Below the pieces are notes generated by a model that saw only the letters and a program-made list of their open reading frames with translations, did no database searches and was not told the DNA's origin. Positions 28,815 to 61,853 of a stretch of 64,000 bases of DNA are shown one piece after another. Position 1 is the first letter of the stretch. The number at the start of each line of letters is the position of its first letter. The position numbers were made by a program, and so were the translations under genes. The stretch comes from a virus, in the IMG/VR virus record IMGVR_UViG_3300021400_000026. One strand, 5' to 3'.

Positions 28815-28887
28815 ATACCTTTTATTTCTTGTATCTGATAATCGTGCGTTTCATGTTCTTGGGTTTACTGGCGGCAGGAATCAGGGT

Positions 28888-30120
28888 TTAACTTTCTGGT
28901 GTAGGCCCGTCCGTCACTTGTGCCGTTTTTGCTGATGCGCCAGAACTGAAGAACACAACGCCAGAGAGCGTCACGATGGTCATTCGCGTCGACTTGATGT
29001 GACTCGAACCAGCAGAGCCGAAATCGTGGTCTGCCGTGCCTGCATAGCTTGAGCCTGCTGCAAGGTTTATTGAGTTTGTCAAGTCCTGCGTGTAGTCCAC
29101 TGTATAGTCTTCTTTCAGATACTCGATGGTCATCTTCGTGATGGTCACGTTGTAGTCGCTCATGGCGTTATCCAGTGTAAAGCTGTTGCGGATGATTCTT
29201 GGCTTCGACTCGTCTCTGTATGATGAGAGGAACAGCACTTTCACGTCTGCCCATCTGATTTGTATATGCACTCTTTGTGGCTCCACCAGCGCGATGTAGT
29301 TGCTTTGTGTGGTCGTAGTCGTCACCATCTTATAGATGTCGCGCTGATTTGGCGACTGTGATCCACGTATGATGTCCGCGCTGGCGAATGGGAAGATGTC
29401 GTAGTCGCCCTCTATCTGTGGGTCTTCAGTATAGGCGTGAACGCTTGCACCCATCTGCTGAAACGAAACCATCGTATCGTTCTGCGTGATGGTGTATAGT
29501 TTCTTCAGGCTTGCGCTTGTCTGTCGGTTCCACAGTGAAAAGCCGAAATACATGTTGTAGACCGAATATCCTCCCATCTGCAAGTCCTCGTATTTCACGG
29601 TCAGCCCTTCGCTCACGCCTTCCTCGTTCTTCTCGAATATGAATGTCATGTACCCGCCAGGCGATACTTCAACCGTCGAATACTTGAGATTGCCGAGCGG
29701 CTCTTTGGCGCGTTTGAAGTAGCCTTTCGAACTACTGTCAGTCGGGTCTTCAATCAGGTCGCTCAGTCTGAAGGCCGTCTGCGGTCGTGTGTAGCTCCAA
29801 TATTCGGGCACAACGCCTATTTCTGGCGCATTGCTTGGACTGGTGTCGATACCAAACCAGAAGTTGAGCATTCGTCCCAGTTGCTTCGTATTCCAATAGG
29901 GGATGTTCCCGATGCCGTAGTTCACCGACATGCGCTGGTATTCGTTCAGGGCAAATCCGTAAGGCCCGCTGAGGTAATACTCCACAGGCTTGTATCTCGC
30001 CCATCGGTTGATGTCGCCGTGCTTGAACAAGTCTTGCAAGTCGTCTGTCTGATAGTCAAACGCATCGCAAGCGTCGTCAAGCGTGTAAGGCAGCGAAATG
30101 ATGTCGTTACTGAATCCCAT
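28888..30120 (-). CDS. hypothetical virion (tail-tip region) protein
   Basis: 410 aa, the last gene of the tail block. Confidence 0.6.
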   Translation of the reverse strand: MGFSNDIISLPYTLDDACDAFDYQTDDLQDLFKHGDINRWARYKPVEYYLSGPYGFALNEYQRMSVNYGIGNIPYWNTKQLGRMLNFWFGIDTSPSNAPEIGVVPEYWSYTRPQTAFRLSDLIEDPTDSSSKGYFKRAKEPLGNLKYSTVEVSPGGYMTFIFEKNEEGVSEGLTVKYEDLQMGGYSVYNMYFGFSLWNRQTSASLKKLYTITQNDTMVSFQQMGASVHAYTEDPQIEGDYDIFPFASADIIRGSQSPNQRDIYKMVTTTTTQSNYIALVEPQRVHIQIRWADVKVLFLSSYRDESKPRIIRNSFTLDNAMSDYNVTITKMTIEYLKEDYTVDYTQDLTNSINLAAGSSYAGTADHDFGSAGSSHIKSTRMTIVTLSGVVFFSSGASAKTAQVTDGPTPES

Positions 30121-30865
30121 GATCTTTCAACAGTTTTTTGATTTCACGTAGTTCTCGGGCGACGGATATGACAGCTACGAGTGCCGCCGTGCCGTACTGC
30201 ATGGAGAGATTGCCTTCATGGTCTTCGCACACCACCTGTGGCATCACATCACGCCAGTATTGGGCGATGGTGCCCACGTGCTCGGTATCTCCCTGTCTGT
30301 CGCGCCACTTGAAGAGCACGGCTGGCGCATCGGCTATCTTGTCGAGGTCGAGCACCATCTCTTTGCTGACGATTTTCTTCCTTTCGTCTGACACGACCGA
30401 TACGGCTGAGTCGGCAAAGAAGTTTTCAGCCCTTACGGTCACGCCACTGCGAGAGCTCCTGCCGTTGCCGAAGTCGTATTCCGTGATGGCTGATGATAGC
30501 TGGCCACCTTGACGACTGCCGTAGTTGAACCACATCTTATTGCTGCTCGGTGTGGTGTCACAGATATTGAACTCGTTGGCACTTGGTGAGCCTGTTATCA
30601 CATCCTGCACGCCCGTCCAAGGCACTTCGTCGGCTTCGTCGGCATGAACCGCTTTAGGTGCCTTCTCCTGATTCTTCCACTTCTCATCAGTGGCGTTATA
30701 TACGAGCACGTCGCCGTCGGCCTCATTCTCTATCGCCGTGTCGCGGAGTTGCTTCAGCGATCTTACGCCCTCGCCTCCACCGCCTACAGAGTTGCCGCCC
30801 TTAGCGTTGCTCACGTAGGAGTTGTTTTTTCCTACTCGCTTGATGTACTCTCTCGAAATCTTCAT
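30107..30865 (-). CDS. tail fibre/spike protein with S74-like intramolecular chaperone domain
   Basis: Trimmed to MKISREYIK (ATGA overlap at 30862-30865). C-terminal SDERKKIV... segment. Confidence 0.6.
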   Translation of the reverse strand: MKISREYIKRVGKNNSYVSNAKGGNSVGGGGEGVRSLKQLRDTAIENEADGDVLVYNATDEKWKNQEKAPKAVHADEADEVPWTGVQDVITGSPSANEFNICDTTPSSNKMWFNYGSRQGGQLSSAITEYDFGNGRSSRSGVTVRAENFFADSAVSVVSDERKKIVSKEMVLDLDKIADAPAVLFKWRDRQGDTEHVGTIAQYWRDVMPQVVCEDHEGNLSMQYGTAALVAVISVARELREIKKLLKDHGIQ

Positions 30866-32817
30866 AGCTGCATGATTTTTAGTGTCGTGATATTGTCGCG
30901 CCAGCGGTGGCTGATGGCCACGGGGTAGAAGTCCGCACTTTCGAGGCTTACCTTGTAGTCGGGCCCTATGCTGTTTGTGAGGTTCGTCCACAGGTCTATC
31001 TGTAGGCTCCGTCGGATGGTTGAACCGTAGGCTGCAATCAGGTCGGCAACGTGCTGCTCTGGCTTCAGCTGTGTGGTGCCAAATGGGATTGTGTTTGCCA
31101 CGATGTTGCCGCTGTAGACGAGTCCATATCCAGCCTGGCATCTGAAAGTCTTCGCATTGACGGTATTGGTCTTGTCTGATGAGAAGATGGTGTCTACGTT
31201 CACGTCGTCTGGGAAGCTGCCGCCGTTGGCGGTGTATTCCTTGTCGTTCAGGTCGTCCTCTTCGCCGTTTCTCACAAAACCTATCTTGAAGTCCATCAGT
31301 GGGAAGTAGCCGTTCCAATAGTTCTGATTCCTGAATACATCATCGACGGCAAAATAAATCTTTCCTATTATAGGCGCGGTGATTGGGATTCCCATGCCGT
31401 CGTAGTCAGCATTATTGTAAATCGTGTCTGTGTTCTCGATTCCATTGTCCTTCATCGACAGCTTGAATTTGCTGGCAGTCGATGTCCACGCCGTGCCATT
31501 CCAGTAAAGGTCACCAATCTTCAGTGTGCATTGTCCGGCATGGTCTTCTGAAATTTCAGTATCTTCGTAGTCTGCACGGCCTGATATGTAGAGCACGCCG
31601 TCACCTAATATGACCGCACCCTGACTCTCCATCGAGAAGAGCGGAGTTGTGCTTCTTCTGTTGCCATAGTCCTCTGAGATGAAGCACTCATAGCATTTGT
31701 TCCAGCTGAATTTCTTCTTGTCATCTTCCGTATTGTCGTCGAAGGCTGCGAAACGACCATAGCACATCGGAATGCCTGCGCCTTCCTGCTGTTCTGCGTA
31801 TGACGTAATCTTTATCATCGCATTCTCATAGTTGATGACTCCGCGATACAGTAGCCACACTTCCGTTGGCTCTGTCGGCTCGTTTCTCCACCGCTCAGCT
31901 CTTGTCGGTGTGTCGTACTTATACGGCCTACAGATGTCGTCGTATGGTATTTCCATGATGACATCATAGGGATTCAACTCGGGGCTGACGGTAACTTTTT
32001 TCACGCCTGGAATGTACTCTTCGGAATGGTCGGTGCTGGCAAACATCGCGTCGGTCAGCGCGAGGCTCTTCATTGTGACGGGCGTGAACACAGGCGACGC
32101 GGCCTGCAACTGAGCCAACGGGCATGAGAGCCACCGCTGGTTGCGCAATCCGTCGGTGATGGCCGTGAAGTAGACACCGGCCCCACTCGTGCGGCACGTC
32201 CAACCGAAGAACTTGCACAGCTCCTGTAGCAGTCCCAGACATGTGAAGCGCGAGGTCAGTTCCACGCCGTTCTCTGTCAGGAAGTTGCGCCACGACAGCT
32301 TGTAAGCCAGCCATGCGCGAATGTCGTTGTCGGTCGATGATGATGCGTGGAAGTAGAAGGTGTAGCTCAGTCCAGTCAGCTTCGAGAAGATGTAATAGAG
32401 TAATTGTCCGAGCGTCACCATGTCGGCAGGCCCCGTCACTTCCACGTCGAATGAGTCGAGGGCTGACAGTCCGCAGATCAGCGGCAACTCAAACTCATTG
32501 TAGATGGCTGGGTAGGTCGTGCCGTAGGTTCCTGTCTGCACATAGCCCTGCCAGCGGATGGTGCTGCCCTGATAGAGCTTTACGGGCATGGCTGTTGCCG
32601 ACGATGGGATGAACTGCCGCCACGTCGTATTGTCTTCTGCCACCATACGGACGTAGCCGCTTTGCGTCCTCACTGGCATAAACATGTCAGTGTCGGCATC
32701 TTCCTGAGTCTCTATCGGTTCCGATGAGAGTTTTGGCGATGTCGCTGGCGTCACGCCTCCGATGTTCAGCGTGAAGGTTGTGCCGTCGAGTGCTACGAAG
32801 TTCTGCTGATATGCCAT
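30862..32817 (-). CDS. large tail-tip/baseplate protein
   Basis: 651 aa, in the position after the tape measure and a Dit-like gene. Confidence 0.6.
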   Translation of the reverse strand: MAYQQNFVALDGTTFTLNIGGVTPATSPKLSSEPIETQEDADTDMFMPVRTQSGYVRMVAEDNTTWRQFIPSSATAMPVKLYQGSTIRWQGYVQTGTYGTTYPAIYNEFELPLICGLSALDSFDVEVTGPADMVTLGQLLYYIFSKLTGLSYTFYFHASSSTDNDIRAWLAYKLSWRNFLTENGVELTSRFTCLGLLQELCKFFGWTCRTSGAGVYFTAITDGLRNQRWLSCPLAQLQAASPVFTPVTMKSLALTDAMFASTDHSEEYIPGVKKVTVSPELNPYDVIMEIPYDDICRPYKYDTPTRAERWRNEPTEPTEVWLLYRGVINYENAMIKITSYAEQQEGAGIPMCYGRFAAFDDNTEDDKKKFSWNKCYECFISEDYGNRRSTTPLFSMESQGAVILGDGVLYISGRADYEDTEISEDHAGQCTLKIGDLYWNGTAWTSTASKFKLSMKDNGIENTDTIYNNADYDGMGIPITAPIIGKIYFAVDDVFRNQNYWNGYFPLMDFKIGFVRNGEEDDLNDKEYTANGGSFPDDVNVDTIFSSDKTNTVNAKTFRCQAGYGLVYSGNIVANTIPFGTTQLKPEQHVADLIAAYGSTIRRSLQIDLWTNLTNSIGPDYKVSLESADFYPVAISHRWRDNITTLKIMQL

Positions 32818-32854
32818 AGTCTTTTTTTTCTGTCAATAAAACATTGTCGTGGGT

Positions 32855-33238
32855 TCACTCTGTATAGAACGGGCAGCGTCCCGTCCCCTTGAACTTGACC
32901 GTACCTTCGGCGAGATTGCCGACGGCTCCATTCAGGTCGGCCTGCTGACAGATCACCGTCCCCGTGCGCCGCTGGTCACCCACTACGACACTGATGGTGT
33001 ACTTGTGGCGCACCTTCAGCAGTCCCTCAAACGGTTCGCCGGCAGTCACCAGGTGATTGAGCGATACGCTCCAGTCGTCGCGTCCTGGCACATAATCGCG
33101 GGCTTCCGCCGTCGATGGGGATGCAGTCTCTATCAGGTCGGTCTGATAACTGATGCTGCACGTCTTGGCGGCTGCGATGATCTGGGTTGTCCCCGTCGAG
33201 CCCTGGTATATGAAAATGTTTTTCCCGAGAATTGCCAT
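32855..33238 (-). CDS. tail-tube-fold / distal tail protein candidate
   Basis: Trimmed to MAILGKNIF. Sequence pattern resembles the two tube paralogs at 38.4-39.3 kb. Confidence 0.5.
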   Translation of the reverse strand: MAILGKNIFIYQGSTGTTQIIAAAKTCSISYQTDLIETASPSTAEARDYVPGRDDWSVSLNHLVTAGEPFEGLLKVRHKYTISVVVGDQRRTGTVICQQADLNGAVGNLAEGTVKFKGTGRCPFYTE

Positions 33239-35616: not shown

Positions 35617-36315
35617 TTATTCTTCATTAAATTGCGTTTCAATCCATTTCTCTACGTGCCCTGCGAGTGTCTGTCCCAGCTGCTGTGCTGCCTGTTCCAT
35701 GTCGCTGCTCATGCTGTGGAAGAATGAGCGTGGAGCGATATTGCCGCGTCTACCCCATGAAGCCCTTGAACCGTGTCCGGTTGGTCCGTAAGATTTTGCC
35801 GTGCGCACATCAGTTCCGTTTTCTAAAAAGCGCAAAATAAATGATCTATCTGGGCCATAATACTCATTGATGTCTTTGGTTCGTTTGCTAACATATCGGG
35901 GTTTGATTTTGCCTGGCTCATACAGGCGCTTGTGGCTACTAATCCGGCCTCGATTTCCTCCTATGTTTATATTGCCCCCGAACTCACCTTTATACATTCG
36001 GCGAAGCACGGCAGACGATGCGCTTCCAGCACCAACGCCACGGGCTTTCTGCACGGCACGGGCACGCATAATACCCAGCACCTTGCCAAGTTCTGCACGC
36101 ACCAGTTCAGAGAACCAACCATCGAATTCCTGCAACGACATGTTGCCGCCTTTGACCATTGCGACATTCTGAGTCACGCGGTCTTGGAGTTGTAGCTTAC
36201 GAAGCACACTATCGACAGCCTTTTCGAGATTCTTCAATCCAGAAAAGTCTGCCATCAAACCGTCGATACGGTTGTTGGTGACGTTGAGTCCTTTGAAACC
36301 ACTTACTAATGCCAT
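35617..36315 (-). CDS. hypothetical protein (HK97 gp10-like motif)
   Basis: 232 aa with FILRFLENGT...RGNIAPRSFF. Confidence 0.4.
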   Translation of the reverse strand: MALVSGFKGLNVTNNRIDGLMADFSGLKNLEKAVDSVLRKLQLQDRVTQNVAMVKGGNMSLQEFDGWFSELVRAELGKVLGIMRARAVQKARGVGAGSASSAVLRRMYKGEFGGNINIGGNRGRISSHKRLYEPGKIKPRYVSKRTKDINEYYGPDRSFILRFLENGTDVRTAKSYGPTGHGSRASWGRRGNIAPRSFFHSMSSDMEQAAQQLGQTLAGHVEKWIETQFNEE

Positions 36316-36354
36316 AAAAAATGCCCGATTAGCTGTTACACTAATCGGGCATTT
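36316..36354 (-). terminator. intrinsic terminator
   Basis: On the minus strand, AAATGCCCGATTAG-8 nt-CTAATCGGGCATTT (14-bp stem) followed by TTTTT. Confidence 0.75.
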
Positions 36355-36371
36355 CGCTTGTAGGGGTTTAC

Positions 36372-36893
36372 TTATCCCTCCAGGTCGGGCTGGGTGCCGC
36401 CACCCTCGCCGCCTTCTCCGCCATCGCCGTTGCCGGTCTTGGCAACATAGGCTTTGGTCTCGATGCCGACACGCTTCACCTGATACTCCTCCTTCTCCAA
36501 CAGGTCGGTGAATTTCTGCATACAGGTGGCACGGACGCGACAGGTGACACCGCCCGCCTTGTCGATCAGGTCGCCAGCGTTGTCCTCGGTGAGCTCGGTC
36601 ACCGTCGGGTCGAGTTCCTTGGCACGGGCAAGGTTGATATTGCCACCCTTGATGTGGATGTCGGGGAAGATGCGGATGGCCACCTCGTCGCCCGCGTTCA
36701 GCTGGATGGCAAAGCCCTCGGCCATCTTCTCGGCTGCGGCTTTGCAGAAGTTCTCCAGCACGGCTGCTGCCACCTGCTCAGGTATGAGCGCATTCTGATG
36801 CGAAATCTCACGAGCAAGTGCCTTCGTGTCGCAGGTACGGAGCACTTCATTGGCCGTAATCGTTTTCTCACTCTGTAGGGCTTCATTGCCCAT
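36372..36893 (-). CDS. HU-like DNA-binding protein, second copy
   Basis: The real start is taken as MGNEALQSEK (alternative at 36920). Contains ALAREISHQNALIPEQVAAAVLENF...GFAIQL. The track's 402-aa ORF is a read-through artefact. Confidence 0.55.
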   Translation of the reverse strand: MGNEALQSEKTITANEVLRTCDTKALAREISHQNALIPEQVAAAVLENFCKAAAEKMAEGFAIQLNAGDEVAIRIFPDIHIKGGNINLARAKELDPTVTELTEDNAGDLIDKAGGVTCRVRATCMQKFTDLLEKEEYQVKRVGIETKAYVAKTGNGDGGEGGEGGGTQPDLEG

Positions 36894-36944
36894 GTTCAGT
36901 TGTCCTTTGTAATCAATCATAAAATAAAGGTTTTTAGGGTTTAT

Positions 36945-37016
36945 ACTATAAAGGGTGTGACCCTTTTTACTATAAAGGGTGTGACCCTTTTTACTATAAA
37001 GGTCGGCACCCTTTTT
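36945..37016. repeat. 3 tandem 24-bp units, each with a 7-bp-arm palindrome
   Basis: ACTATAAAGGGTGTGACCCTTTTT x2 plus a variant unit. The core TATAAAGGGTG is shared with 17206..17269. Confidence 0.85.
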
Positions 37017-37024
37017 GGGGGTCG

Positions 37025-37537
37025 CTATTTTCCGAGTACCATCATATAGGCATAGATGAAGGTGATGGCGAAGCACATCATCTCGGCCCAGAAGGTCTGC
37101 GTGGGCCAATCGTGATTGTCGCGCGTCTTCCAGATGAACACACCCACCCACGGGAGCCACAGCAGGATCAGCTTCGGACGGTTGAATGCCACGAGTCCCA
37201 TAGCGCTGAGGGCGCAGACGACGGCCGAAACGAGGTGTACGCGGTAGGCCATGTCGCTCTTGTCCTTGACCAGCGGGCAGCCCGCCACGAAGAGCAGGCC
37301 TGCACAGGCAAAGAAAGCCAGGAACTGGGCACGATGGGCCGTGCCGATGAGTACGGGAGCCAGGGCGAAGACGACGGCTGCGATGACCGCCGTCCACAGC
37401 CACGCGCCCTTCCTTGGCAGGAAGAAAACGGAGGCCGAGAGAGAACGGGGGATGCCGTTTTGGGCACACAGGATGACGGTGTAGGCTATCAGCAACACGG
37501 CAGCGATGGTGATAAGGATGAAGAATGTTGTGATCAT
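37025..37537 (-). CDS. polytopic membrane protein (paralog of 28311..28814)
   Basis: 170 aa with ~5 TM segments. Confidence 0.7.
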   Translation of the reverse strand: MITTFFILITIAAVLLIAYTVILCAQNGIPRSLSASVFFLPRKGAWLWTAVIAAVVFALAPVLIGTAHRAQFLAFFACAGLLFVAGCPLVKDKSDMAYRVHLVSAVVCALSAMGLVAFNRPKLILLWLPWVGVFIWKTRDNHDWPTQTFWAEMMCFAITFIYAYMMVLGK

Positions 37538-37544
37538 TGTTCTG

Positions 37545-37589
37545 ACATAAAAAAAGAAACTCGCCGATTAGTCGGCTCACTAATCGGCG
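37545..37589 (-). terminator. intrinsic terminator
   Basis: On the minus strand, CGCCGATTAGT-6 nt-ACTAATCGGCG followed by a T-rich run. Confidence 0.7.
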
Positions 37590-37606
37590 GTTATAGTACC
37601 TGGGGT

Positions 37607-37941
37607 TTACTCTTCCGTCTGGCTGTTGATCGCATCCATCACGTCCAGCAGTTCTTCCACGTCTTCAGCAGAGATGGGCGGCTCGTCGTCGTCATCGTCG
37701 AAGTCGAAGAGCATGGGGAACATGTCGGCCACGGTCTTGCCCTGTGGGTCGCGCATGACGTGGATGGCGGCATAGACGCATTCAGCCATCAGTTGATGCT
37801 TCAGCAGGTCGCGGCGACGGTAGCCGCGAATAATACGGCGCACCTCCCAGAAGCGGAGGTCGTAGAGAAACTCACGGCGAGGGATTCCGATTTCGCCCAC
37901 TAACAACTGATAGATGTCGTGGGCGTTGCTTAGTTTTTTCC
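37607..37941 (-). CDS. tail assembly chaperone, -1 frameshift (T-like) extension
   Basis: The -1 frame is open from the slippery site through 37607 (KKLSNAHDIYQLLVGEIGIPRREF...). Confidence 0.65.
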
Positions 37942-42561: not shown

Positions 42562-42745
42562 AATGCTTAGAAATTTTAATTGTTAAACTTATACATACGG
42601 CACCTTGCCGTACACTTACCTGTTGATTTGTTGTCTTGGGTTTACTCTTTTAAGAAAGCCCGCAGGCTCGGTCATGGCTGTTGCTGGTGCATCGCCGCCG
42701 TCCTGCGGGCCGATTATCAAGAACTATGAACTTGATGTGAGAGTG

Positions 42746-44725: not shown

Positions 44726-44757
44726 ATCACTTTTTTAATTGATGGTTTACTTATTGG

Positions 44758-45549
44758 TTATTTTCCCATCTGGGGTTTACTCCACAATTCCTCGTTCTGT
44801 TTCAGCCATTCGGCCTGCTGCTTCAGGGTGGCATTCTTCCAGCTTGCACTGCCGAGGTGTACCACCATCGGACGGATGTCAACGTGCAGACCTTTCAGTC
44901 GTGGGCGATGGGTAAGCACGTCCTCCAGCAGGCTTGCGCCGGTGTCGTACCAGTTTTGAGGGTTGTCCTCACCCTTGTGGAGCATCCACGAGCGGTCGGG
45001 ATCGAAGTAGTTCACGCCCTCTGCCCGGAACTTCGGCACGTTGAAGTAGCACAGCATCGGCAGTATGCGACCACGCCCGAAACGGTTTCCGCGCTGCTGC
45101 TTCTGAACATAACCGCAGAAGGAATACTCCTCACGCCACAGGGTGCTGATGTCGGCTTTCACGAGGATGTCGCTCTCCACGAGAATGAATCCGTCCGGCA
45201 GCTGCTCCCAAAGTTTCTGCACGGTCATCATGTGACGGTCCGAGCCCCACAGGTTTACTTCGCCGTGCGGCTTGTGGCGGTCGGGGAAGGCCTGCAAAGC
45301 CTTGTCGAAGTCCACCTGCTGCCCCTTCGTATTGTCGATTATCTTCACGCCCTTCATGCGCTTCTTGAACGGGTGCGCCTCGATGGTGCGGGCAGGGAGT
45401 TCGTCACCGGCTGGCAGAGTCAAGTCCTGCGAATTGTCGAACACCACAATGGGCCACTCACAGCCGTGCTTCCTGATTGACAGGATGCAGCACTCCACCA
45501 GTTCCGGCGTGTTCAGGTTGATAATGGCGATGGTCTGTTTCTTCTTCAT
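44758..45549 (-). CDS. glycosyltransferase family 2-like
   Basis: N-terminus IAIINLNTPELVECCILSIRKHG...VVFDNS fits a GT-A fold start. Confidence 0.5.
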   Translation of the reverse strand: MKKKQTIAIINLNTPELVECCILSIRKHGCEWPIVVFDNSQDLTLPAGDELPARTIEAHPFKKRMKGVKIIDNTKGQQVDFDKALQAFPDRHKPHGEVNLWGSDRHMMTVQKLWEQLPDGFILVESDILVKADISTLWREEYSFCGYVQKQQRGNRFGRGRILPMLCYFNVPKFRAEGVNYFDPDRSWMLHKGEDNPQNWYDTGASLLEDVLTHRPRLKGLHVDIRPMVVHLGSASWKNATLKQQAEWLKQNEELWSKPQMGK

Positions 45550-46054: not shown

Positions 46055-46387
46055 TTATTGTCTGATTTCTTGTGCGATGATTTGTATCTGATTGTCTTGG
46101 CGGTCTTCCTGGAATTGGAGTATCTGGTATGTCTTCCCGCCCGAACGCAGACGACAGTCACGGTTCACGATGTCGTTCCACCTCATGCGGATCATCACCA
46201 CGTCGTAGGCTTCCAGTGCGCCTTCCTGCATGGGTCGTGCACCCTTCGTCCACGTCACGGCAGCCCACACACAGGCGGCCGTCTCGAACACTGGCTCACC
46301 CGAGCCGCGTCCGCGTTCGCCGGAGGTTGCCCGCTGACGGGTCAATATCTCCACTCTGTCCTTGAGCATTCCACTTGAATATGCCAT
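46055..46387 (-). CDS. head-tail adaptor / head closure protein (gp16-like)
   Basis: 110 aa. The pattern ...VWAAVTWTKG...MIRMRW...YQILQ resembles the head-tail joining family. Confidence 0.5.
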   Translation of the reverse strand: MAYSSGMLKDRVEILTRQRATSGERGRGSGEPVFETAACVWAAVTWTKGARPMQEGALEAYDVVMIRMRWNDIVNRDCRLRSGGKTYQILQFQEDRQDNQIQIIAQEIRQ

Positions 46388-46453
46388 ACGCTATTCGGTT
46401 GAATTAGTACCTTGGGTTTACTGCATGAAACTTACCTACCTTTCTTTGTTGCT

Positions 46454-46552: not shown

Positions 46553-47963
46553 AACTTTCCTCGCCCTCCTTTGGTGGTTCCTGCACGGTGTAACTGCCCG
46601 GCTTCAATTCCGTTGCGCCCTCGCTCTTGGCGATGAGAGCCTTCAGCGTCATCAGGTTGGCACTGGCCAGCGGCTCGTCGCCGTTCTCCACTGCCGGGCG
46701 GTCGTACTGCTGTCTGATCTCGTTGATGGTCGAAGCACCCGTCTGGAGCATAATCTGGTCAACCTTCGCCTGAGCCTCCTTGTCAAGCCGCATGAGTGGC
46801 TGTTCGCACATGTGGAACCGTCGCATTCCGAAGTCGTACTGGTTCAGCAGCTTGGAGTTGAACTCCTGCTCAATCTCCGTGATGTCGGGCTGAATGGTCC
46901 ATTGCAGCAACTCCATTCGTGCGTTCTGATAGGTCGTGTAATGCGAGTTGGTATCTTCCATCAGCAGCGGACGTTGAACACCGTAATACCTACAAACGTC
47001 GTTGATACCCATTCCTAACACCTCAATCATCTGCTGGTCTTGTGCCGACATGCTGATGTTGTGGAGGGCAGACAGTCCACGGATGCCCACCACGTCCTGC
47101 TGGTACATCTTCGTGTTCAGTTCCTTGGCGTAGGAGTCAATCTGTTCCTTGTTCAACAGTCCGAATGACAGCGTACCGGCACCCTGCGCCGGCTTCTCCT
47201 CACCGATGATGAGTTTCACGCGTCCGCCCTTCGCAGCCGTTTCCAGTGCCTGGTTCGTTTCCGTCTTGATGAGCGAGAGCGTGTCAAAGGCATAGTGAAG
47301 CGTGGAGATACCCCAGCCGTTGGTCATCTTGTAGGTGTTGGGGATGTGGATCACGTCCGATGCTTCCACTGCATCAATATTCATGATGCCCCGGCGGGTG
47401 TAGTATTGCACACGATATGTGCCGTTGGCTTCATTGTAGCCGGCACCGAAGCAGAGCCACAATGCCACGGGCCATCCCCGGTCGTCGCGCTCGATGTAGG
47501 CGATGCCGTTGCCGTTCTGGAGTTTCGAGATGACCAGCCCCTGCATGAAGGCCGAAGCCGTCATCATCGGGTTCGGACGGACTTGCAGCAGGTAGTTCAA
47601 CTGCTGCCCATAGGTGACATACTGACTGCACACGGCTCCCACTTCAGGAACGAAATTACCGCCCTTTTTGTCGAGTTTCTGATACTGGAGCATAAACTGC
47701 CCCTCCGTCTTGGCTATCAACCCGACGGCACGATAGACGGCGGGAACGGTCAGTGCTGCCTGTGGCGTCAGCACATGGCGGATGTGCGACTGGAACGAGC
47801 CGCTTTCGCCCGTAGCCTTGCTGCTGGTGGTTTCCGGCTCAGCCACATTCGTCTGGTCAGTGGTCTCGCGTACAGCCATTAACGGCATGTCGTCCACCGC
47901 CTCGCGCTGAAAACTATTGAATCTTGAAAAATTGCTCATATACGTCTTTTTCAAATCGGTCAT
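46551..47963 (-). CDS. portal protein
   Basis: 470 aa, called from size and position in the head module. Confidence 0.7.
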   Translation of the reverse strand: MTDLKKTYMSNFSRFNSFQREAVDDMPLMAVRETTDQTNVAEPETTSSKATGESGSFQSHIRHVLTPQAALTVPAVYRAVGLIAKTEGQFMLQYQKLDKKGGNFVPEVGAVCSQYVTYGQQLNYLLQVRPNPMMTASAFMQGLVISKLQNGNGIAYIERDDRGWPVALWLCFGAGYNEANGTYRVQYYTRRGIMNIDAVEASDVIHIPNTYKMTNGWGISTLHYAFDTLSLIKTETNQALETAAKGGRVKLIIGEEKPAQGAGTLSFGLLNKEQIDSYAKELNTKMYQQDVVGIRGLSALHNISMSAQDQQMIEVLGMGINDVCRYYGVQRPLLMEDTNSHYTTYQNARMELLQWTIQPDITEIEQEFNSKLLNQYDFGMRRFHMCEQPLMRLDKEAQAKVDQIMLQTGASTINEIRQQYDRPAVENGDEPLASANLMTLKALIAKSEGATELKPGSYTVQEPPKEGEES

Positions 47964-48015
47964 TTTGCCGTTATGGGTTTACCCGTCGGCACGGAGCCGA
48001 CGGGCACACGATGGA

Positions 48016-49706: not shown

Positions 49707-49911
49707 TTGTTTGTTCTTGACCTGCTGCGCCGATTGTCACTTTTGACTATGTGACAGCCTACCCTTTCCTTTGCTATTGCTTGCACGGTCGGCTGGTGGT
49801 CTTGGCACCTTTTCTTTGCGTTGTTTCGCTCTCCATCGTCAGCGAGGCTCTGCACCTGCCTCTTTGGTTGCAGGTCACAACCGCGAGGGCTTATTGGTTT
49901 TGTTTGCGTAT

Positions 49912-50024
49912 CAGTTGCCGAAGCCGATGTTCGTGTTCGCGTTCGAGGGCGAGTTGTTAGCGTTCATCGTCAACGGAGACAGGTTCGTGTTGTTAGCGTT
50001 GTTGCCGCGGCGAAAACCACGAAC
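49912..50024 (-). repeat. DGR template repeat (TR)
   Basis: 113 bp, 98/113 identical to the VR. On the coding strand it reads VRGFRRGNNANNTNLSPLTMNANNSPSNANTNIGFGN (AAC-rich). Confidence 0.9.
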
Positions 50025-50195
50025 CGACGGATCAGTGCAGCCGCCTTATCATTCTGTGAAAGAACTCAACCTCACCACCTGACGGGTACTCCGATTCCCT
50101 TGTGCGCTTTGGTCGGTGGCCTGGATTTCTGCATCAACGATGTCGCACCACATCTCCACACTATGCTGTCGATTCCTCGTATTGGGTTTACCAGA

Positions 50196-50237
50196 CAAAA
50201 AAACCGAGGCCACCCCACCATCGGGATGACCTCGGTT
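50196..50237 (-). terminator. intrinsic terminator between target gene and TR
   Basis: On the minus strand, AACCGAGG-20 nt-CCTCGGTT followed by TTTTTTT. Confidence 0.65.
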
Positions 50238-50403
50238 TCTGAATTTTCCACCCGCGACCTCCTTGAGGCGGTATCTTCACCCCTCCTTTCAGTCTGGGCC
50301 GCGCTGTCGCGCGGGTTTTCGTTTTCGGCCCTCACTACGTTCGGGCGGTTTACGTTTTCTTTTTCGGACGGGTCACTCACTTCGCTCGTGACGGACGTTT
50401 ACG

Positions 50404-52801: not shown

Positions 52802-53293
52802 CTAATTATTTTTCAAAACACGGAGCCGGAGACCGTTTACGTCGCGGAAGTAGTTCTGGAAGATGTCGCGCAGATAGCGGAACAGACTTCGCTTATCGCT
52901 GCGGAGCGTGCGCTCATAGGACACGTAGATACCCTGATAGATACCACCCTCGTCGCGCATCATCTGTGGCATCCTCGAACTGGTGTTCACGAAGCACAGC
53001 GGCTGCTGCTCCTTCTCTGTGCGGTAGCCGTCGGCATAGTCACCGTCGGGCACGTCGTAGGCACACTCCACCGTCACCACGCCAACCATGTCATTCGTCG
53101 GGAACGTAAAGAACCACTGGTCGGCCTCGTCTTTCATCATTTCCGACTTCTGTATCACGAGCGTCCGTCCCTGCATGCCCCATTTGAGGGTCACCGAAAA
53201 CGGGTTCTCTGACATGGAGAATCCTTCTCGCTCGATGGCGATGCGGTACTTTGCCTTCTCGCCTTGCTGAATGATGTTCTTGCTGTTGATCAT
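52802..53293 (-). CDS. hypothetical protein
   Basis: 163-aa track ORF. Confidence 0.65.
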   Translation of the reverse strand: MINSKNIIQQGEKAKYRIAIEREGFSMSENPFSVTLKWGMQGRTLVIQKSEMMKDEADQWFFTFPTNDMVGVVTVECAYDVPDGDYADGYRTEKEQQPLCFVNTSSRMPQMMRDEGGIYQGIYVSYERTLRSDKRSLFRYLRDIFQNYFRDVNGLRLRVLKNN

Positions 53294-53335
53294 ATCTAAG
53301 ATACTTTATATTTCACTTGTTTTGCCGTATCGGGT

Positions 53336-53626
53336 TTACTGCGGTATCCGTTCTTCAGCTGGATAGACCCTGAGAGCCTTGTCGCTGCTGTCGCGGAGCG
53401 TCAGCAGGTTCACGTCGCGGAGCGTCAGCATGCCCGTCTGCTGCACGATGGTGACTTGTGCCGAAGCCCGTCCGTCTGCCGTCCGTAAGGTAATGACTTG
53501 CTGGCGGTCACTGCCCAGATTGTCGGTGGTAGAACGAACGGTAACGACTCCATCACCTTGTCCGTCGTATGTCAGGATGATGTCGCCGTTGCCGTCGGTC
53601 CAGGGGATGGTGAGTGTCTTTGCCAT
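53336..53626 (-). CDS. BACON/Ig-like single-domain protein
   Basis: Pattern W..GNG...V....N.G..R...I. Confidence 0.5.
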   Translation of the reverse strand: MAKTLTIPWTDGNGDIILTYDGQGDGVVTVRSTTDNLGSDRQQVITLRTADGRASAQVTIVQQTGMLTLRDVNLLTLRDSSDKALRVYPAEERIPQ

Positions 53627-54514: not shown

Positions 54515-55140
54515 CCTCGAATGGTGATGTGTGGGTTAATGCGAACAACTGACTTGCGGAACCCGCTGGGGAAGTCTTTATCTGGAATCTGGAACGTCAC
54601 CTTTACCATGAGCGTGCCAATGCCATAGTCGTCGGTGTTGATGATAACCACGTAGTCGCCTTCGTCGGTCAGTATGCACTCCGTCTTCTTGAACGTCTTC
54701 CTCTTGTCCTTGGCGTCGGCATTGACCACTTCCACGGTGAAGTCCACATCTTGCATGGTGAGGTCGTCCGGCAGTTCCGACGTGATGAGTATCTTCTCTT
54801 GCGAGCCGAGCGTGACGGTCTGCTGCCTAATCCCGCAAGGCTCAGAAGTCAGCCGCATGTACGGCTTGATGAGCATGTCGAAAGCGTAAGGCACACTACT
54901 CAGGTTCTGAGCCGACGAAGGCTCACGGTGCTGGTACGATTGTCCCACCAGCAGCATAGCGGCCTGAACCAGCGGGGCCGGCACTTCGCCGTAACTTTCC
55001 AGCAGATCATGGTAGTTGCGGTTCAGCAGGTTCAGCAAGGTGTCCTCTGCGGCCTTGCCATACTCGTCGAGTAAGGTGTCCTCTTCGCTCCAGTCTATAC
55101 GAAGCTGCTGCTTGATGTAATCCAATGTGAGAAATTTCAT
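54511..55140 (-). CDS. head-tail connector (gp6-like)
   Basis: Trimmed to MKFLTLDYIKQQLRID...; the N-terminal pattern fits the gp6-like connector family. Confidence 0.6.
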   Translation of the reverse strand: MKFLTLDYIKQQLRIDWSEEDTLLDEYGKAAEDTLLNLLNRNYHDLLESYGEVPAPLVQAAMLLVGQSYQHREPSSAQNLSSVPYAFDMLIKPYMRLTSEPCGIRQQTVTLGSQEKILITSELPDDLTMQDVDFTVEVVNADAKDKRKTFKKTECILTDEGDYVVIINTDDYGIGTLMVKVTFQIPDKDFPSGFRKSVVRINPHITIRG

Positions 55141-55213
55141 ATTTCTGCCTTTTTTACTTAGCGGCAGAAATACGTCTTGGGGTTTACCGCCTGCCGACAA
55201 CTGGGGCAAGCGC

Positions 55214-55239
55214 AAAAAAATGGGCGACCGCTGTCGCCC
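55214..55239 (-). terminator. intrinsic terminator
   Basis: On the minus strand, GGGCGAC-agcg-GTCGCCC followed by ATTTTTTT. Confidence 0.7.
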
Positions 55240-55324
55240 TACACTCTTTTACTAAATGAATAACTAACTACTAAAACAATTAATGATTTTATGAAAAAAC
55301 TACTGACTTTTGCCCGTCGCGGGT

Positions 55325-55768
55325 TTATCGTTTTAAAAGATTGTCGATAACTTGTCTGCGGTTTCGCCCATAAGGTGGAGCGACATACGAGACGTGAATC
55401 CAGTACGTGCCGTTGCGGTCGTGCTCCCAGATGAGTTGGTCGAAGTTCAAATGCGTCTTGATCCAGTCAAACCACTTGCGGCCTTTCTTCATATCGCCGT
55501 CGATGCAAAGGTCTGCCGCCTGCCCTTTCGTGTGCTGACTGTTCGAGACACCGCCAACGGCTCTGTTCAGCCGCTCGCAACGGTAGCCGCTGCTGATCCT
55601 GATGGGCTCGTTCATCGCCTCGCGGAGCGGTTCAAGCACGTAGGCAGCGAGATACACCAGACAGATGATTTGCTGTACGTTCGGTTTGTTGTCAATTCCC
55701 TTCGCCTTGGCGGTCGCGCTGGCGTAGAGCTCTTCAATCGTAAAGTGCATGGTTACGGGTGTGGACAT
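55325..55768 (-). CDS. peptidase M15 endolysin
   Basis: Contains SGYRCERLNRAVGGVSNSQHTKGQAADL. Confidence 0.85.
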   Translation of the reverse strand: MSTPVTMHFTIEELYASATAKAKGIDNKPNVQQIICLVYLAAYVLEPLREAMNEPIRISSGYRCERLNRAVGGVSNSQHTKGQAADLCIDGDMKKGRKWFDWIKTHLNFDQLIWEHDRNGTYWIHVSYVAPPYGRNRRQVIDNLLKR

Positions 55769-55821: not shown

Positions 55822-56397
55822 CTAAATCTCATTATCAGGCTCGATGTCATGCTGCTTCGCCTCTGGGCGGATGGTGTTCTCAATCTCCCCGCTTGGCGAG
55901 ATGGTTACGGGTACACGGATGGCGCAGCCGTTCCGTCCACACAGGAAAGGGCGCATAAAGGCAACCATTCGGCTGTTACGTGCCACCTCGAACTGCAAGT
56001 CCCTCATCGCCTTCTCCAGCTTGTCCTGACGTTTGCGCAGGTCGTCACGCTCCTGGCGTAAGTGTTGGCGGTCTTCTTTCAGCTCGGCGATGTACTGCTT
56101 CTGCTCGTCGTTGTACTGCTGTTGCGTTTCGAGGTTCGCCTTCAGGTCGGCTGTCAGCTGCTGATAACTGTCCTGAATCTCCTTTGTCAACTGGGCGTTG
56201 GCCTGCATCGCCTCGAACTTTGCCTTTTCCGCCTCGGCTTCTGCTGCCTTGGCTTCCGACTTGGCCTTCTTTCGCTGGTATCTCCATGTGAAGAATGCCC
56301 CGCCACCGCCACCCAGTAGAAGGGTCACGATAGCAATGATGTTGTCGATAGATAGGATGTCTGTCATTTCTTGATGATTTATAAACTTACAAATCAT
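55822..56397 (-). CDS. membrane-anchored coiled-coil lysis-associated protein (holin/spanin-like)
   Basis: An N-terminal TM followed by a long coiled coil. Directly upstream of the endolysin. Confidence 0.5.
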   Translation of the reverse strand: MICKFINHQEMTDILSIDNIIAIVTLLLGGGGGAFFTWRYQRKKAKSEAKAAEAEAEKAKFEAMQANAQLTKEIQDSYQQLTADLKANLETQQQYNDEQKQYIAELKEDRQHLRQERDDLRKRQDKLEKAMRDLQFEVARNSRMVAFMRPFLCGRNGCAIRVPVTISPSGEIENTIRPEAKQHDIEPDNEI

Positions 56398-56432
56398 GAG
56401 AAACGACGCTATGGGTTTACTCTGTGCTTTTC

Positions 56433-57217: not shown

Positions 57218-57631
57218 TTATATAATACCAGATTGCTTCATGCGTCGGTATAATGTCCTTTCAGAAACGCTCATTATTTTTTCGAGTTCATTCTTTTCGT
57301 ACTCTAATATAGGCAACCTATGCTCTTCTTCTTCGATGTATTCCTCGATGGTTTCTTCCTTTGAGGTCGGTACCGGCTTTGGTGTCAGGCGTTTCAACGG
57401 TGCCAGGTCTGTGAGTCCTGGGTCGATGATGTCAACAGTCATGCCGAGTGCTTCGGCTATCTGCTGGATGGTGACGTAGGCCACGCTCACCAGTTTGCCC
57501 TTCTCGATGCGCCCGATGTGCTGGCGGGTCAGTCCGGCACGGTCAGCCAGTTCCTGTTGGCTGATGCCCTCCAGTTTGCGCAGGGCAGTGATACGCTGCC
57601 CCATGCGCTGTGCTGCTTGTTCTTTACTCAT
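57218..57631 (-). CDS. XRE-family HTH regulator with C-terminal extension
   Basis: Contains ISQQELADRAGLTRQHIGRIEKG and the shared ALGMTVDIIDPGLTDLAPLKRLT. Confidence 0.8.
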   Translation of the reverse strand: MSKEQAAQRMGQRITALRKLEGISQQELADRAGLTRQHIGRIEKGKLVSVAYVTIQQIAEALGMTVDIIDPGLTDLAPLKRLTPKPVPTSKEETIEEYIEEEEHRLPILEYEKNELEKIMSVSERTLYRRMKQSGII

Positions 57632-58575: not shown

Positions 58576-58584
58576 GCAAAGATA
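58576..58584 (-). promoter_or_regulatory. -7 promoter box (TATCTTTGC)
   Basis: Same GATGCAAAGATACGA context as at 10166. Confidence 0.45.
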
Positions 58585-59383: not shown

Positions 59384-59396
59384 AATCTTTTGTTCT

Positions 59397-59546: not shown

Positions 59547-59593
59547 ACTCTTTTGTCCTTTTGTTCTTATTATCTAAAAAAAACGTTATTATG

Positions 59594-60049
59594 TTACTCT
59601 GTCTTTCCATCCGCCCACGACAACCCATGCTTTGCCAGCAGATCGTCGAGGCACTCCATCGACTTCTTTCCTGAATCACGGAATTTCAGCCAGTCCATCC
59701 TACTGAGCTTCGTTAGGTCGCGCAGCGTCTCGATACCCTCACGTTTGCAGATTTTGTAAGCACGAATACTTAAGTCAGCCTTGCACTCCTCGATGGTCAT
59801 ATCCAGAAACGGATTGCAAACCGTCTCATCCTGTTCCTCGTCCTGAACCTCGTCAATATACAAGCCGATACGGTCAGGCCGCGTGCCGTCGATCACTCTG
59901 AGGCGCACTGTGTAAGTGTATTCCTCCTCATTATCATCCCCGTAGTGCAGCACCACCATGTCGCCAACGGCTGGCACCACACCACTCCAGTTCGGCCACT
60001 GCTTGATAAACTCGCCCGTGTCGTTCTTATAAAAGCTAATCTGTGTCAT
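59594..60049 (-). CDS. protein with RpoA alpha-CTD-like domain
   Basis: LSIRAYKICKREGIETLRDLTKLSRMDWLKFRDSGKKSMECLDDLLAKHGL fits the alpha-CTD helix-hairpin-helix pattern. Confidence 0.6.
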   Translation of the reverse strand: MTQISFYKNDTGEFIKQWPNWSGVVPAVGDMVVLHYGDDNEEEYTYTVRLRVIDGTRPDRIGLYIDEVQDEEQDETVCNPFLDMTIEECKADLSIRAYKICKREGIETLRDLTKLSRMDWLKFRDSGKKSMECLDDLLAKHGLSWADGKTE

Positions 60050-60061
60050 AGTTCCTTTGTT

Positions 60062-60235
60062 TTATAATTCAAATGCAACACTATACTGCCAGAACAGCCA
60101 ACTGACGGCCATATACACATGCTCACTGCTCCACCCAATCTCTATAGATGGAAGGATGAAAAACAATCGCCCGTCGCGCTTGTTTCCGAAAAAACTCAAA
60201 TATTCGGTATACATATTTCCCCATTTCTTGATCAT
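60062..60235 (-). CDS. possible 57-aa peptide
   Basis: Unlisted ORF with the catagtt start context: MIKKWGNMYTEYLSFFGNKRDGRLFFILPSIEIGWSSEHVYMAVSWLFWQYSVAFEL. Confidence 0.35.
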   Translation of the reverse strand: MIKKWGNMYTEYLSFFGNKRDGRLFFILPSIEIGWSSEHVYMAVSWLFWQYSVAFEL

Positions 60236-60330
60236 AGTTCTTGATGTTTTAATTTATTACTTAAACTGCCTTGCTTGCAGTTTCCTTTTGATTGCCCCGA
60301 CCTGTCCCATTGATTGTGTGATGGGTAGGG

Positions 60331-60855
60331 TTACAATTTCGATTTTGTATAACTCCATCCCATTTTCTTAGACAGAGTTTGCCATTGTATATGAGTCGCT
60401 TCGTCCATACTGACATTTTTCCCTGACTTAACAAGTTTGTCTATTTTCTTTATTGCCGATTCACTTGTTTTGTTATTGATGTCGTGAAGTTGCGATGCTT
60501 TTATTCCCCATCCTTTTTGTGGTCGTTTCAAAGAATAGACGATTCCACTCTGGGTGATAACGTGCATTTCGGACTGATTGGTTGATATTGCGGTTTCAAT
60601 ATCCCCATAAGAAAAAGTCGAACTTCCGGGATGATTGTGAACAGTTACACGATTTGCCGCCAAAGCGTCATCAAATTCCACATGCTTATCATCACCGTCA
60701 GCACGAAAAACTTCTTTTCCGTTCTTATCGAAAATAGAAACATGTTCATCGTAGCTGTTTTGTATTTCTTTCATTCGAGCTGACAAAGCCCTTTCAAGTC
60801 CACGTGAACCACTTCCCATGCCTCCGGCTGCTCCGCCTCCTGCTCTACCTCCCAT
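60331..60855 (-). CDS. hypothetical protein with JAB/RadC-like H-x-H...S-x-x-D motif
   Basis: VHNHPGSSTFSYGD, with one residue less spacing than canonical JAMM. Gly-rich N-terminus. Confidence 0.4.
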   Translation of the reverse strand: MGGRAGGGAAGGMGSGSRGLERALSARMKEIQNSYDEHVSIFDKNGKEVFRADGDDKHVEFDDALAANRVTVHNHPGSSTFSYGDIETAISTNQSEMHVITQSGIVYSLKRPQKGWGIKASQLHDINNKTSESAIKKIDKLVKSGKNVSMDEATHIQWQTLSKKMGWSYTKSKL

Positions 60856-60956
60856 ATCTATATACTTTTAATTGATTAAACTTACTACAATACGGCTGCA
60901 AAACCGCTGAGGGTTTACCATCCGTGTAATCCGTGTAATCCGTGTTTGTTTTTGGT

Positions 60957-61505
60957 TTACTTAAACTGTCTTGCTTGCATCTTGCGCTTGATGGCTTCGG
61001 CACGGAGGCGTTCCATGCCCTGCTGGAACTTCGCCACGGCCTTGTCGCGGTATTCGTGCAGGGGGTTGAGGGTGGGCATCATGGTGCCGTCCCGGCGGGG
61101 AATCGTAAAAGTGTCCTGATAGCCGGGCTGGTTCATTTGTTCGGTCAGGCGGTCGATGAACGTTTTCTGCTGGGCGAGTTCGTCGAGGTCGAGGGCGAGG
61201 GAGTCGGTCCAGAGGTTGTCGGCCTGGAGGGTGCGGCGTATCTGGTCGCGGTTCTGCTCGGTCTGCTGGCGGCGGCGGTCGGCTTCCTCGGCCTCGGTCT
61301 TGGGGTCGCGCTGCTGCTGCATCTGGAGGTTGAGCACGAAGGCGACGGCTTGCAGATCACCACTGAGAGCCTTTTGTACGATGGTCATGCCGATGGCGGC
61401 TTCGGATGTAACGATGTTGCCGTCTTCGTCGGTCATGTACTCCTGGGTGCCCTTGCGCTTCACGGGGGCAGAGAGTTGCTTGATGATGGTGTCCTTTAAG
61501 TCCAT
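60957..61505 (-). CDS. terminase-small-subunit-like protein
   Basis: 182 aa. N-terminal HTH-like GMTIVQKALSGDLQAVAFVLN, coiled-coil middle, C-terminus ...NPLHEYRDKAV... No terL follows. Confidence 0.4.
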   Translation of the reverse strand: MDLKDTIIKQLSAPVKRKGTQEYMTDEDGNIVTSEAAIGMTIVQKALSGDLQAVAFVLNLQMQQQRDPKTEAEEADRRRQQTEQNRDQIRRTLQADNLWTDSLALDLDELAQQKTFIDRLTEQMNQPGYQDTFTIPRRDGTMMPTLNPLHEYRDKAVAKFQQGMERLRAEAIKRKMQARQFK

Positions 61506-61515
61506 AGTTCGCTTG

Positions 61516-61559
61516 ATAAAAATGATAAGAGAGGCCGCTGCGTTGCGGTCTCTCTTATC
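61516..61559 (-). terminator. intrinsic terminator
   Basis: On the minus strand, GATAAGAGAGACCGC-6 nt-GCGGCCTCTCTTATC followed by ATTTTTAT. Confidence 0.7.
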
Positions 61560-61580
61560 GGTGGGGATGGTGGCGGGGGT

Positions 61581-61853
61581 TTACTCCGTCAGACGTTTCA
61601 GCAGTGCGAGGTCTTGCAAGGCTGGGTCGATGATGTCAACCGTCATGCCGAGGGCTTCGGCGATGGCTTGCAGCGTCTCGATGTTCAGCGAGTATCTGCC
61701 TTTCTCTATCCGCGATATGTGGGTACGTTGCAACCCTGCTTTCTCCGACAACTGCTCTTGGCTCAGTCCGGCATTCTTGCGCAATGCTGCGACACGCATT
61801 CCGATGCGCTGGCGTACTTCTTTGCGCTTCACGTTTTTTTCTTCTGTCTCCAT
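61581..61853 (-). CDS. XRE-family HTH regulator
   Basis: Contains LSQEQLSEKAGLQRTHISRIEKG. The 3' ~100 nt are nearly identical to 8719..8820. Confidence 0.85.
   Translation of the reverse strand: METEEKNVKRKEVRQRIGMRVAALRKNAGLSQEQLSEKAGLQRTHISRIEKGRYSLNIETLQAIAEALGMTVDIIDPALQDLALLKRLTE

Follow-up and report, generated by a model that had tools for sequence, protein, structure and literature searches.

Gene junctions in the late region of a 64,000-nucleotide (nt) stretch of viral DNA (IMG/VR record IMGVR_UViG_3300021400_000026; its full length is called the window below) are marked by a strand-specific 8-mer, GGGTTTAC on the plus strand. We read this word as the -35-like half of a bipartite promoter of about 36 bp that would head most late units of a rumen Prevotellaceae temperate siphovirus, and we put the probability of this reading at roughly 0.68. 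The units headed by the element comprise packaging, lysis, head, diversity-generating retroelement (DGR) and tail genes, as well as two membrane-protein morons. Because the flanking genes run on the minus strand, the coding-strand word is GTAAACCC, and the expanded consensus of the putative promoter on that strand reads R-GTAAACCC-(cAgaC..AAwwC..CC)-GAtAAGTrAA. A promoter is favoured because the two blocks keep a rigid -35/-10-like geometry, the distance to the start codon is short, the element is linked to the downstream gene, and terminators frequently lie upstream. Resting on anatomy and comparative evidence, the late-promoter reading is well supported; by inference, the sites form a class of late promoters that RNA polymerase would recognise together with an alternative specificity factor.

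Next to nothing is known of the timing of phage gene expression in Prevotella and other Bacteroidales, hosts whose transcription apparatus is unusual. We classify the element as a putative late-promoter consensus, previously undescribed, from an uncultured Prevotellaceae phage clade; literature searches on the motif and on late promoters or sigma factors of Bacteroidota phages found nothing relevant. Such a 36-bp consensus could serve as a marker for late units and for start-codon correction in uncultured phage genomes, as a handle for finding the factor that reprogrammes the host polymerase, and as a candidate orthogonal promoter part for Prevotella genetic tools. In addition, promoter-leader cassettes lying exactly at mosaic breakpoints would bear on how modules are exchanged between phages.

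A strand-specific 8-mer at late gene junctions

The exact word GGGTTTAC is present on the plus strand at 895, 28861, 36364, 37603, 42638, 44773, 46414, 47975, 50184, 53332, 55180, 56413, 60911 and 61577, positions by which the sites are named here. A count of both strands found no copy in the opposite orientation, in agreement with a preliminary description of this DNA. Fourteen copies compare with 0.99 expected for both strands together, and with a maximum of 4 in 100 dinucleotide shuffles. The same description had listed six one-mismatch copies; all six exist, but the class is not enriched (35 matches, exact copies included, vs 30.8 expected), and the one at 32851 (GTGAACCC) is the only listed copy above threshold, with 12.7 bits under the full 40-column matrix. 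Copies combining one or two mismatches with a good downstream half are absent from the window.

Every exact copy is intergenic or lies in the final 23 nt of the upstream open reading frame (ORF), and only about 10% of the window is non-coding. The TAA of the motif is itself a stop codon at three exact copies (37607, 53336 and 61581), as is the TAA at the corresponding triplet of two variant copies (28888 and 55325); at a further variant copy this triplet is a TGA stop (32855). The genes of 1-23.9 kb and of 28.3-64 kb are carried on the minus strand. Thirteen of the 14 sites fall within 28.8-61.6 kb, before packaging, lysis, head, DGR and tail genes, and none falls in the replication region at 1.7-24 kb. 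Apart from site 895, the early half (1-24 kb) is free of the motif.

Two-part architecture of the element

When the 14 window sites are aligned in register, a second conserved block, missed in the preliminary description, appears exactly 17 nt 3' of the 8-mer. The element is thus R-GTAAACCC-N17-GAtAAGTrAA, about 36 bp long, in which the spacing of the blocks is rigid and the sequence of the spacer is variable. Taken together, 73 unique sites of the window and of portal-related loci give the extended consensus R-GTAAACCC-cAgaC-nn-y-AAwwC-nn-CC-GAtAAGTrAA, with G26 present in 13 of the 14 window sites and in 68 of the 73 overall, and with C24 and C25 conserved as well. GTAAAC is invariant among the collected sites, the C of its AAC stands 18 nt from the CG, and the downstream box reads CGA(T) more often than CGT. 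For cross-validation, a matrix of positions 9-36 was built from 189 sites of other loci, leaving out sites with 8 or fewer differences from a window site; with this downstream-block matrix, the score of each of the 14 sites exceeds the 99.9th percentile of background in the window.

Distance to start codons, terminators and hairpins

The next minus-strand ATG lies 41-84 nt from the motif start at 12 of the 14 window sites. The exceptions are site 895, at 149 nt, and site 50184, which precedes the non-coding DGR template repeat and the reverse transcriptase. In relatives, 50% of 167 unique sites have the ATG of a long ORF at 40-59 nt, vs 14% of random positions, and the distances peak sharply at 45-49 nt. 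The sequence between motif and ATG is A-rich.

Intrinsic terminators lie directly 5' of several sites (50217-50205, 55239-55222 and a T-run before site 56413) and of many sites in relatives, and many sites are probably untranscribed from upstream because of them. Terminator scans gave no overall enrichment. Hairpins after the sites at 36.3, 37.6 and 61.5 kb, which had been described as terminators following the motif, do exist, but they overlap the -10-like box and are a minority feature rather than terminators that belong to the motif. The 5' arm of such a hairpin is supplied by the -10-like CCGATTAG at three sites of the window, and the same holds for some relatives.

Conservation in relatives and mosaic junctions

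Related phages carry hundreds of copies of the element, nearly always on the coding strand. In 17 portal-related IMG/VR loci, 69 copies are on the coding strand and 1 is opposite; in 41 TerL-related loci reaching down to 47% identity (453 kb), the numbers are 63 and 1. The exact 17-base pattern GTAAACCC-N15-CCGATAAGT occurs 113 times on the coding strand vs once on the other in 47 IMG/VR loci (352 kb). The outlying site 895 (868..903) is kept at the equivalent junction in one relative, L014.

Relatives retain the 8-mer and the downstream block at the portal junction. Their spacers differ, as does the entire 5' flank, which is unrelated from one relative to another, and homology starts at the motif. 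The gene order of the relatives is strongly shuffled, with every module retaining its own element. Furthermore, window site 55180, which serves an adaptor gene, has a terminator-promoter-leader cassette that recurs as a whole and almost unchanged before the portal gene of loci L002, L006 and L013, and this homology stops at the ATG. On the basis of these three patterns, the element belongs to the 5' side of genes. As far as sequence comparison goes, it behaves as a portable putative promoter-leader cassette that marks mosaic breakpoints. The shared cassette, made of terminator, GCTTGCCCCAGTTGTCGGCAAGCG hairpin, motif and leader, spans 55110-55330 in the window and L002:6590-6810, L006:9810-10030 and L013:8050-8270.

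The source phage and its relatives

Pfam and PHROGs scans of essentially all ORFs identify the window as a temperate siphovirus with a Bacteroidales host. Its packaging and structural genes include TerL, portal, S78 protease, HK97-type capsid protein, head-tail adaptors, tape-measure protein and M15 endolysin, and a tyrosine integrase (25428-26663) is present with a divergent module adjoining. Domains typical of Bacteroidales (HU-HIG, Mfa2, BACON and crAss001_48) are found in window proteins. The late region had zero megablast matches to 50,697 phage records, and the nearest cultured portal, that of Bacteroides phage Bacuni_F1, shares 28% identity. The relatives of the window are rumen metagenome contigs, and multi-copy motif matches in genome collections come from Prevotella, Prevotellaceae and Bacteroidales metagenome-assembled genomes (MAGs).

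Comparison with known promoter systems

Several phages encode sigma-like factors for their middle or late promoters, such as SPO1 gp28 and gp33/34 (late CGTTAGA-N18-GATATT), PBSX Xpf, phiEco32 gp36 and T4 gp55 (TATAAATA). Like these promoters, the element is a private consensus that stands before late units and not at early genes, does not resemble the host promoter and splits the genome into temporal classes; it is also conserved at the equivalent gene starts of relatives. The factors of those phages are recognisably or demonstrably sigma-like, whereas none is recognisable here and a candidate protein encoded at 909-1622 gives no significant sigma match. In T4 middle promoters, a MotA box at -30 is combined with a host -10, and MotA and AsiA appropriate the sigma factor. 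By analogy, a phage DNA-binding activator could read the upstream box here instead of sigma region 4, and the candidate protein consists of DNA-binding modules; however, T4 middle promoters retain the host -10, and the downstream box of the element is unlike the host -7 TAnnTTTG. T7-type promoters are contiguous blocks of about 20 bp that include the start site and need a phage RNA polymerase. They share with the element a strongly conserved, strand-specific repeat at gene junctions, but a T7-like promoter was rejected, since the element has two blocks with a variable spacer and no RNA polymerase domain was found in window proteins with Pfam and PHROGs.

Promoters of extracytoplasmic function (ECF) sigma factors offer a further comparison. 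Examples are B. subtilis SigW (TGAAAC-N16-CGTA) and SigX (tGTAAC-N17-CGAC) and E. coli RpoE (GGAACTT-N16-TCAAA). In layout, the element resembles ECF (group 4) promoters: its two boxes are rigidly spaced, the upstream one contains AAC and is highly conserved, a C-G-containing box follows about 17-18 nt further on, little change in spacing is tolerated, and there is no resemblance to the housekeeping consensus. A CGT -10 box has also been reported for the ECF-type motif of a flavobacterium, a member of Bacteroidota (PMC9723704). ECF sigma factors are often encoded close to their promoters and autoregulated, and their transcripts start 6-8 nt past the -10 box. In contrast to such systems, phmmer and jackhmmer searches found no ECF sigma gene in the phage or its relatives; a host ECF sigma may recognise the element.

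The housekeeping promoter of Bacteroidota, recognised by sigma-A, consists of -33 TTTG and -7 TAnnTTTG (PMC7366714). As with these promoters, the element precedes genes with short leaders lacking a Shine-Dalgarno sequence, but its consensus differs, and TAnnTTTG is found at none of the 14 sites. On the minus strand, intergenic coding-strand TAnnTTTG boxes occur only at 62710-62717, 58577-58584 and 10170-10177, where they are near-identical and head early-looking units. These sigma-A-type promoters read ..ACTTGTnC..N..TATCTTTGCATC and are probably early promoters, whose shared flanks may hold operators.

Proposed mechanism and points against it

In the mechanism we propose, RNA polymerase with an alternative specificity factor, either a host ECF-type sigma or a divergent phage protein, would bind GTAAAC(CC) as the -35 and CCGAt/GATAAG as the -10. 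Transcripts would begin about 36-41 nt past the first G of GTAAACCC and have very short, A-rich leaders. Terminators just 5' of the sites would insulate the transcription units, and hairpins over the -10-like box would stop read-through transcripts; transcripts born at the promoter would escape such hairpins, because a transcript starting inside a hairpin cannot fold it. Early genes would use the three ordinary sigma-A promoters instead, and the motif would therefore separate the late regulon from early transcription.

Several observations weigh against this proposal. The -10-like box of the element is CGA/GAT (CCGAt/GATAAGT) rather than the CGT(C/A) of classical ECF promoters, and its spacing is 18 nt rather than 16-17. 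Neither a canonical sigma factor nor an RNA polymerase was found in searches with Pfam, PHROGs and the RpoE and SigW queries that covered the window together with about 1.9 Mb of related loci, and the recognising factor is hypothetical for that reason. Collection of the sites by exact match accounts for part of the invariance of the 8-mer, and one relative (L105) carries the same bipartite elements with one-mismatch 8-mers. The implied leaders, about 5-15 nt, are very short. Finally, the first in-frame ATG lies within or before the -10-like box at sites 46414, 47975 and 56413, which means that translation must begin at an ATG further on; relatives confirm this for the portal gene, whose start MSNFS they conserve 43-47 nt after the motif.

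Alternative explanations

The preliminary description had proposed a late-gene control signal without a host consensus and left open whether it is a promoter element, a site of antitermination or pausing, or one of RNA processing. The general proposal stands, and among its options the promoter is favoured and the other two are disfavoured. The RNA option is the strongest of the alternatives, though unlikely. The element would act on long polycistronic late transcripts, either as a site at which a sequence-specific endoribonuclease or RNA-binding protein would produce defined 5' ends or as a translation enhancer for Bacteroidota mRNAs lacking a Shine-Dalgarno sequence, which would suit its strict confinement to the coding strand, its rather constant distance to the start codon and the A-rich stretch before the ATG. 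The gene at 60331-60855 also has a faint HicA-toxin-like match (E 0.05). Against this, the blocks are fixed 17 nt apart and yet the ATG is 41-149 nt away, the upstream terminators would often prevent read-in transcription of the sites, and a split linear RNA motif is atypical of known RNases. Nor does the element behave as a structured RNA: RNAalifold predicts 0 consensus pairs for 59 diverse sites, and a tRNA was the only match in an Rfam scan of the window.

Strand specificity and repeated intergenic placement are also features of the stoperators of mycobacteriophage L5, which are single asymmetric 13-bp sites spread over early and late regions without a -10-like partner. A prophage repressor bound to such asymmetric sites could block elongation or initiation across the late region in lysogeny, and the comparison has some appeal for a temperate phage that encodes an integrase and has many oriented copies of a short asymmetric site in short intergenic gaps. 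Distant relatives L035 and L037 contain GTAAACC-like clustered iterons, and such words can be protein-binding sites. We nevertheless consider a stoperator very unlikely. The sites here are bipartite and confined to the late region, leaving the early and replication half, where silencing matters most, without any; a second A/T-rich block at promoter-like spacing and a constrained ATG distance are not stoperator features; and the sites move with the downstream genes.

Little credence attaches to an antitermination, pause or loading site of the ops, qut or nut kind, at which a processivity factor would join polymerase coming from one or a few late promoters. Such a site would be expected to show strand specificity and to lie in a non-coding leader, and many of the sites have terminators or hairpins nearby, but known systems have one site per operon and here there are 14 in about 35 kb, one per 1-6 genes or roughly one per 2-3 kb. 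In about half the cases the terminator is 5' rather than 3' of the site, the bipartite geometry suits sigma recognition, and Pfam and PHROGs scans of window ORFs detected no NusG/RfaH-, Q- or N-like cognate protein. Least probable of all is that the element is mainly a recombination linker, whose boundary sequences mediate module shuffling with no direct role in expression: mosaic breakpoints coincide with it on either side and modules keep it while gene order differs strongly among relatives, but recombination by itself would not preserve the strand bias, the paired blocks around a free spacer and a fixed start distance over several hundred sites, and the breakpoint pattern is better explained as a by-product of shared promoters.

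The candidate protein 909-1622

For the promoter reading, a possible trans-acting factor is the protein encoded at 909-1622, just upstream of site 895. The real start of ORF 909-1673 is M18, which gives a 236-aa protein. Its sequence shows very strong conservation among 377 homologues, which share long invariant stretches, and it falls into none of the Pfam or PHROG families. Its gene lies directly 5' of a motif site in the window and in L018, L029 and L030. Most loci with homologues cover early regions only, which limits the comparison of motif co-occurrence.

Searches for a sigma-like relationship gave little. With phmmer and jackhmmer, RpoE and SigW queries against 8240 ORFs of the window and all loci found no ECF sigma in any phage locus; the sole match was in an unrelated MAG contig (L104). 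ORF 909-1673 has no sequence match in the PDB, and its full-length AlphaFold2 model (predicted local distance difference test score, pLDDT, 66) has no Foldseek match. For the model of the four-helix C-terminal domain (pLDDT 84), there was no significant match in the PDB or BFVD; the highest target-normalised template modelling scores in the Foldseek PDB list fell on region 2 of E. coli sigmaE and S. coelicolor ShbA and are insignificant (0.47-0.54, E>6). Similarly, hhalign of 909-1673 against RpoE gave an insignificant region-4-like match with 0.6% probability. In remote homologues, both domains of 909-1622 occur fused to HNH_3/NUMOD4 homing-endonuclease modules, and these fusions speak for sequence-specific DNA binding and against a sigma factor.

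From such evidence, 909-1622 is a weak candidate and an unlikely reader of the element, and it is likewise doubtful that the element is read by a new phage-encoded specificity factor of this kind, outside the known sigma families. Were 909-1622 to bind GTAAACCC and redirect Prevotella RNA polymerase, it would represent a new class of late-transcription factor in Bacteroidota phages, and the promoter-leader cassettes would double as junctions for module shuffling.

In loci with homologues of the candidate, the over-represented word GGAACTATG was considered as a junction promoter and rejected as start-codon context; GTAAACCA and TGTAGGACG were rejected likewise, being clustered iterons. These phages carry dense iteron arrays a few hundred nt to 3 kb downstream of the candidate gene, with GTAAACCA in L035:13340-13510 and L037:13275-13445 and TGTAGGACG in L032:10990-11270. 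The early genes of L020 and L021 share the start context aaGGAACTATG, a conserved translation-initiation context and not a promoter.

Individual sites and further features of the window

The individual sites and their contexts are listed in Table 1.

Table 1. Bipartite elements of the window, with contrasting and candidate features.
Feature	Position	Strand	Context
Sigma-A-type -7 box TATCTTTG with upstream TTG	62710..62717	-	Contrast to the motif sites
Bipartite element, AGTAAACCC-N17-GATAAGAGAG	61550..61585	-	First site in the late transcription direction; TAA is the stop of helix-turn-helix gene 61581-61853; 79 nt 5' of the ATG of TerS-like gene 60957-61505
Bipartite element	60884..60919	-	Before gene 60331-60855, ATG 63 nt from motif start; weakest downstream half among the 14
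Bipartite element	56386..56421	-	Directly 3' of a T-rich terminator; likely ATG 53 nt from motif start; precedes lysis cassette (55822-56397, membrane/spanin-like; 55325-55768, endolysin)
Bipartite element	55153..55188	-	After terminator 55239-55222; head-tail adaptor ATG 47 nt downstream
Bipartite element	53305..53340	-	TAA is the stop of 53336-53626; ATG of 52802-53293 46 nt downstream
Bipartite element	50157..50192	-	After terminator 50217-50205; between DGR variable repeat and template repeat with reverse transcriptase
Bipartite element	47948..47983	-	Before portal gene; true start, per relatives, is the ATG 43 nt from motif start (MSNFS...)
Bipartite element	46387..46422	-	Before head-completion gene 46055-46387; in-frame ATGs at 34 and 52 nt
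Bipartite element	44746..44781	-	In the final 23 nt of ORF 44758-45549; ATG of prohead protease 44003-44725 55 nt downstream
Bipartite element	42611..42646	-	3' of capsid gene 42746-43981; ATG of 41677-42561 84 nt downstream
Bipartite element	37576..37611	-	TAA is the stop of 37607-37906; ATG of membrane-protein gene 37025-37537 73 nt downstream; -10-like CCGATTAG is the 5' arm of hairpin 37589-37562
Bipartite element	36337..36372	-	Right after the stop of the second HU-like gene; ATG of 35617-36315 56 nt downstream, tape-measure gene next; -10-like CCGATTAG is the 5' arm of a hairpin followed by T6
Weak variant GTGAACCC	32824..32859	-	Poor downstream half; 41 nt 5' of the ATG of 30862-32817; possible weak site only
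Bipartite element	28834..28869	-	ATG of membrane-protein gene 28311-28814 54 nt downstream; final transcription unit ahead of terminator 28253-28234
Candidate trans-acting factor, 236 aa	909..1622	-	Low confidence; N-terminal beta-sheet and C-terminal four-helix domain
Bipartite element	868..903	-	6 nt past the stop of 909-1673; 149 nt 5' of HU-HIG gene 271-753

Some neighbouring genes deserve mention. The DGR is complete at 48369-52779, with reverse transcriptase 48369-49706, template repeat 49912-50024 and variable repeat 50420-50532, the last being 87% identical and located at the 3' end of a 791-aa gene (50404-52779). Lying between the two repeats, site 50184 could drive transcription of the template repeat and reverse transcriptase. 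The membrane-protein genes 37025-37537 and 28311-28814 on the minus strand, each just 3' of a motif site, encode multi-pass paralogues, and ORF 36372-37580 of the mechanical ORF list is an over-extension across the former. Both HU-HIG genes (271-753 and about 36372-36893) have two or three tandem repeats of 21-24 nt upstream on the minus strand (760-860 and 36925-37020). These repeats, tcggcaaactctcaaaagaga and aaaagggtcacaccctttatagt, are followed by tATAAACCCTAwAAAA and resemble the operator arrays of a separate control system.

Three XRE-type helix-turn-helix paralogues on the minus strand (8719-8967, 57218-57631 and 61581-61853) share an almost identical C-terminal tail (..TVDIIDPxLxDLAPLKRLT), and the last of them ends with a stop codon inside the first late motif. 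A module like the C-terminal domain of the RNA polymerase alpha subunit (Pfam RNA_pol_A_CTD) is found in the minus-strand genes 59594-60049 and 5246-5899 (E 5e-9 and 0.1), whose products may modulate host transcription. Finally, the tRNA gene at 22922-22996 on the minus strand, with an Rfam tRNA score of 48.9 bits, has an 8-nt anticodon loop (TTTGCATT), for which ARAGORN gives the four-base anticodon tgca without an amino-acid assignment; this phage tRNA may decode quadruplets or be unusual in another way.

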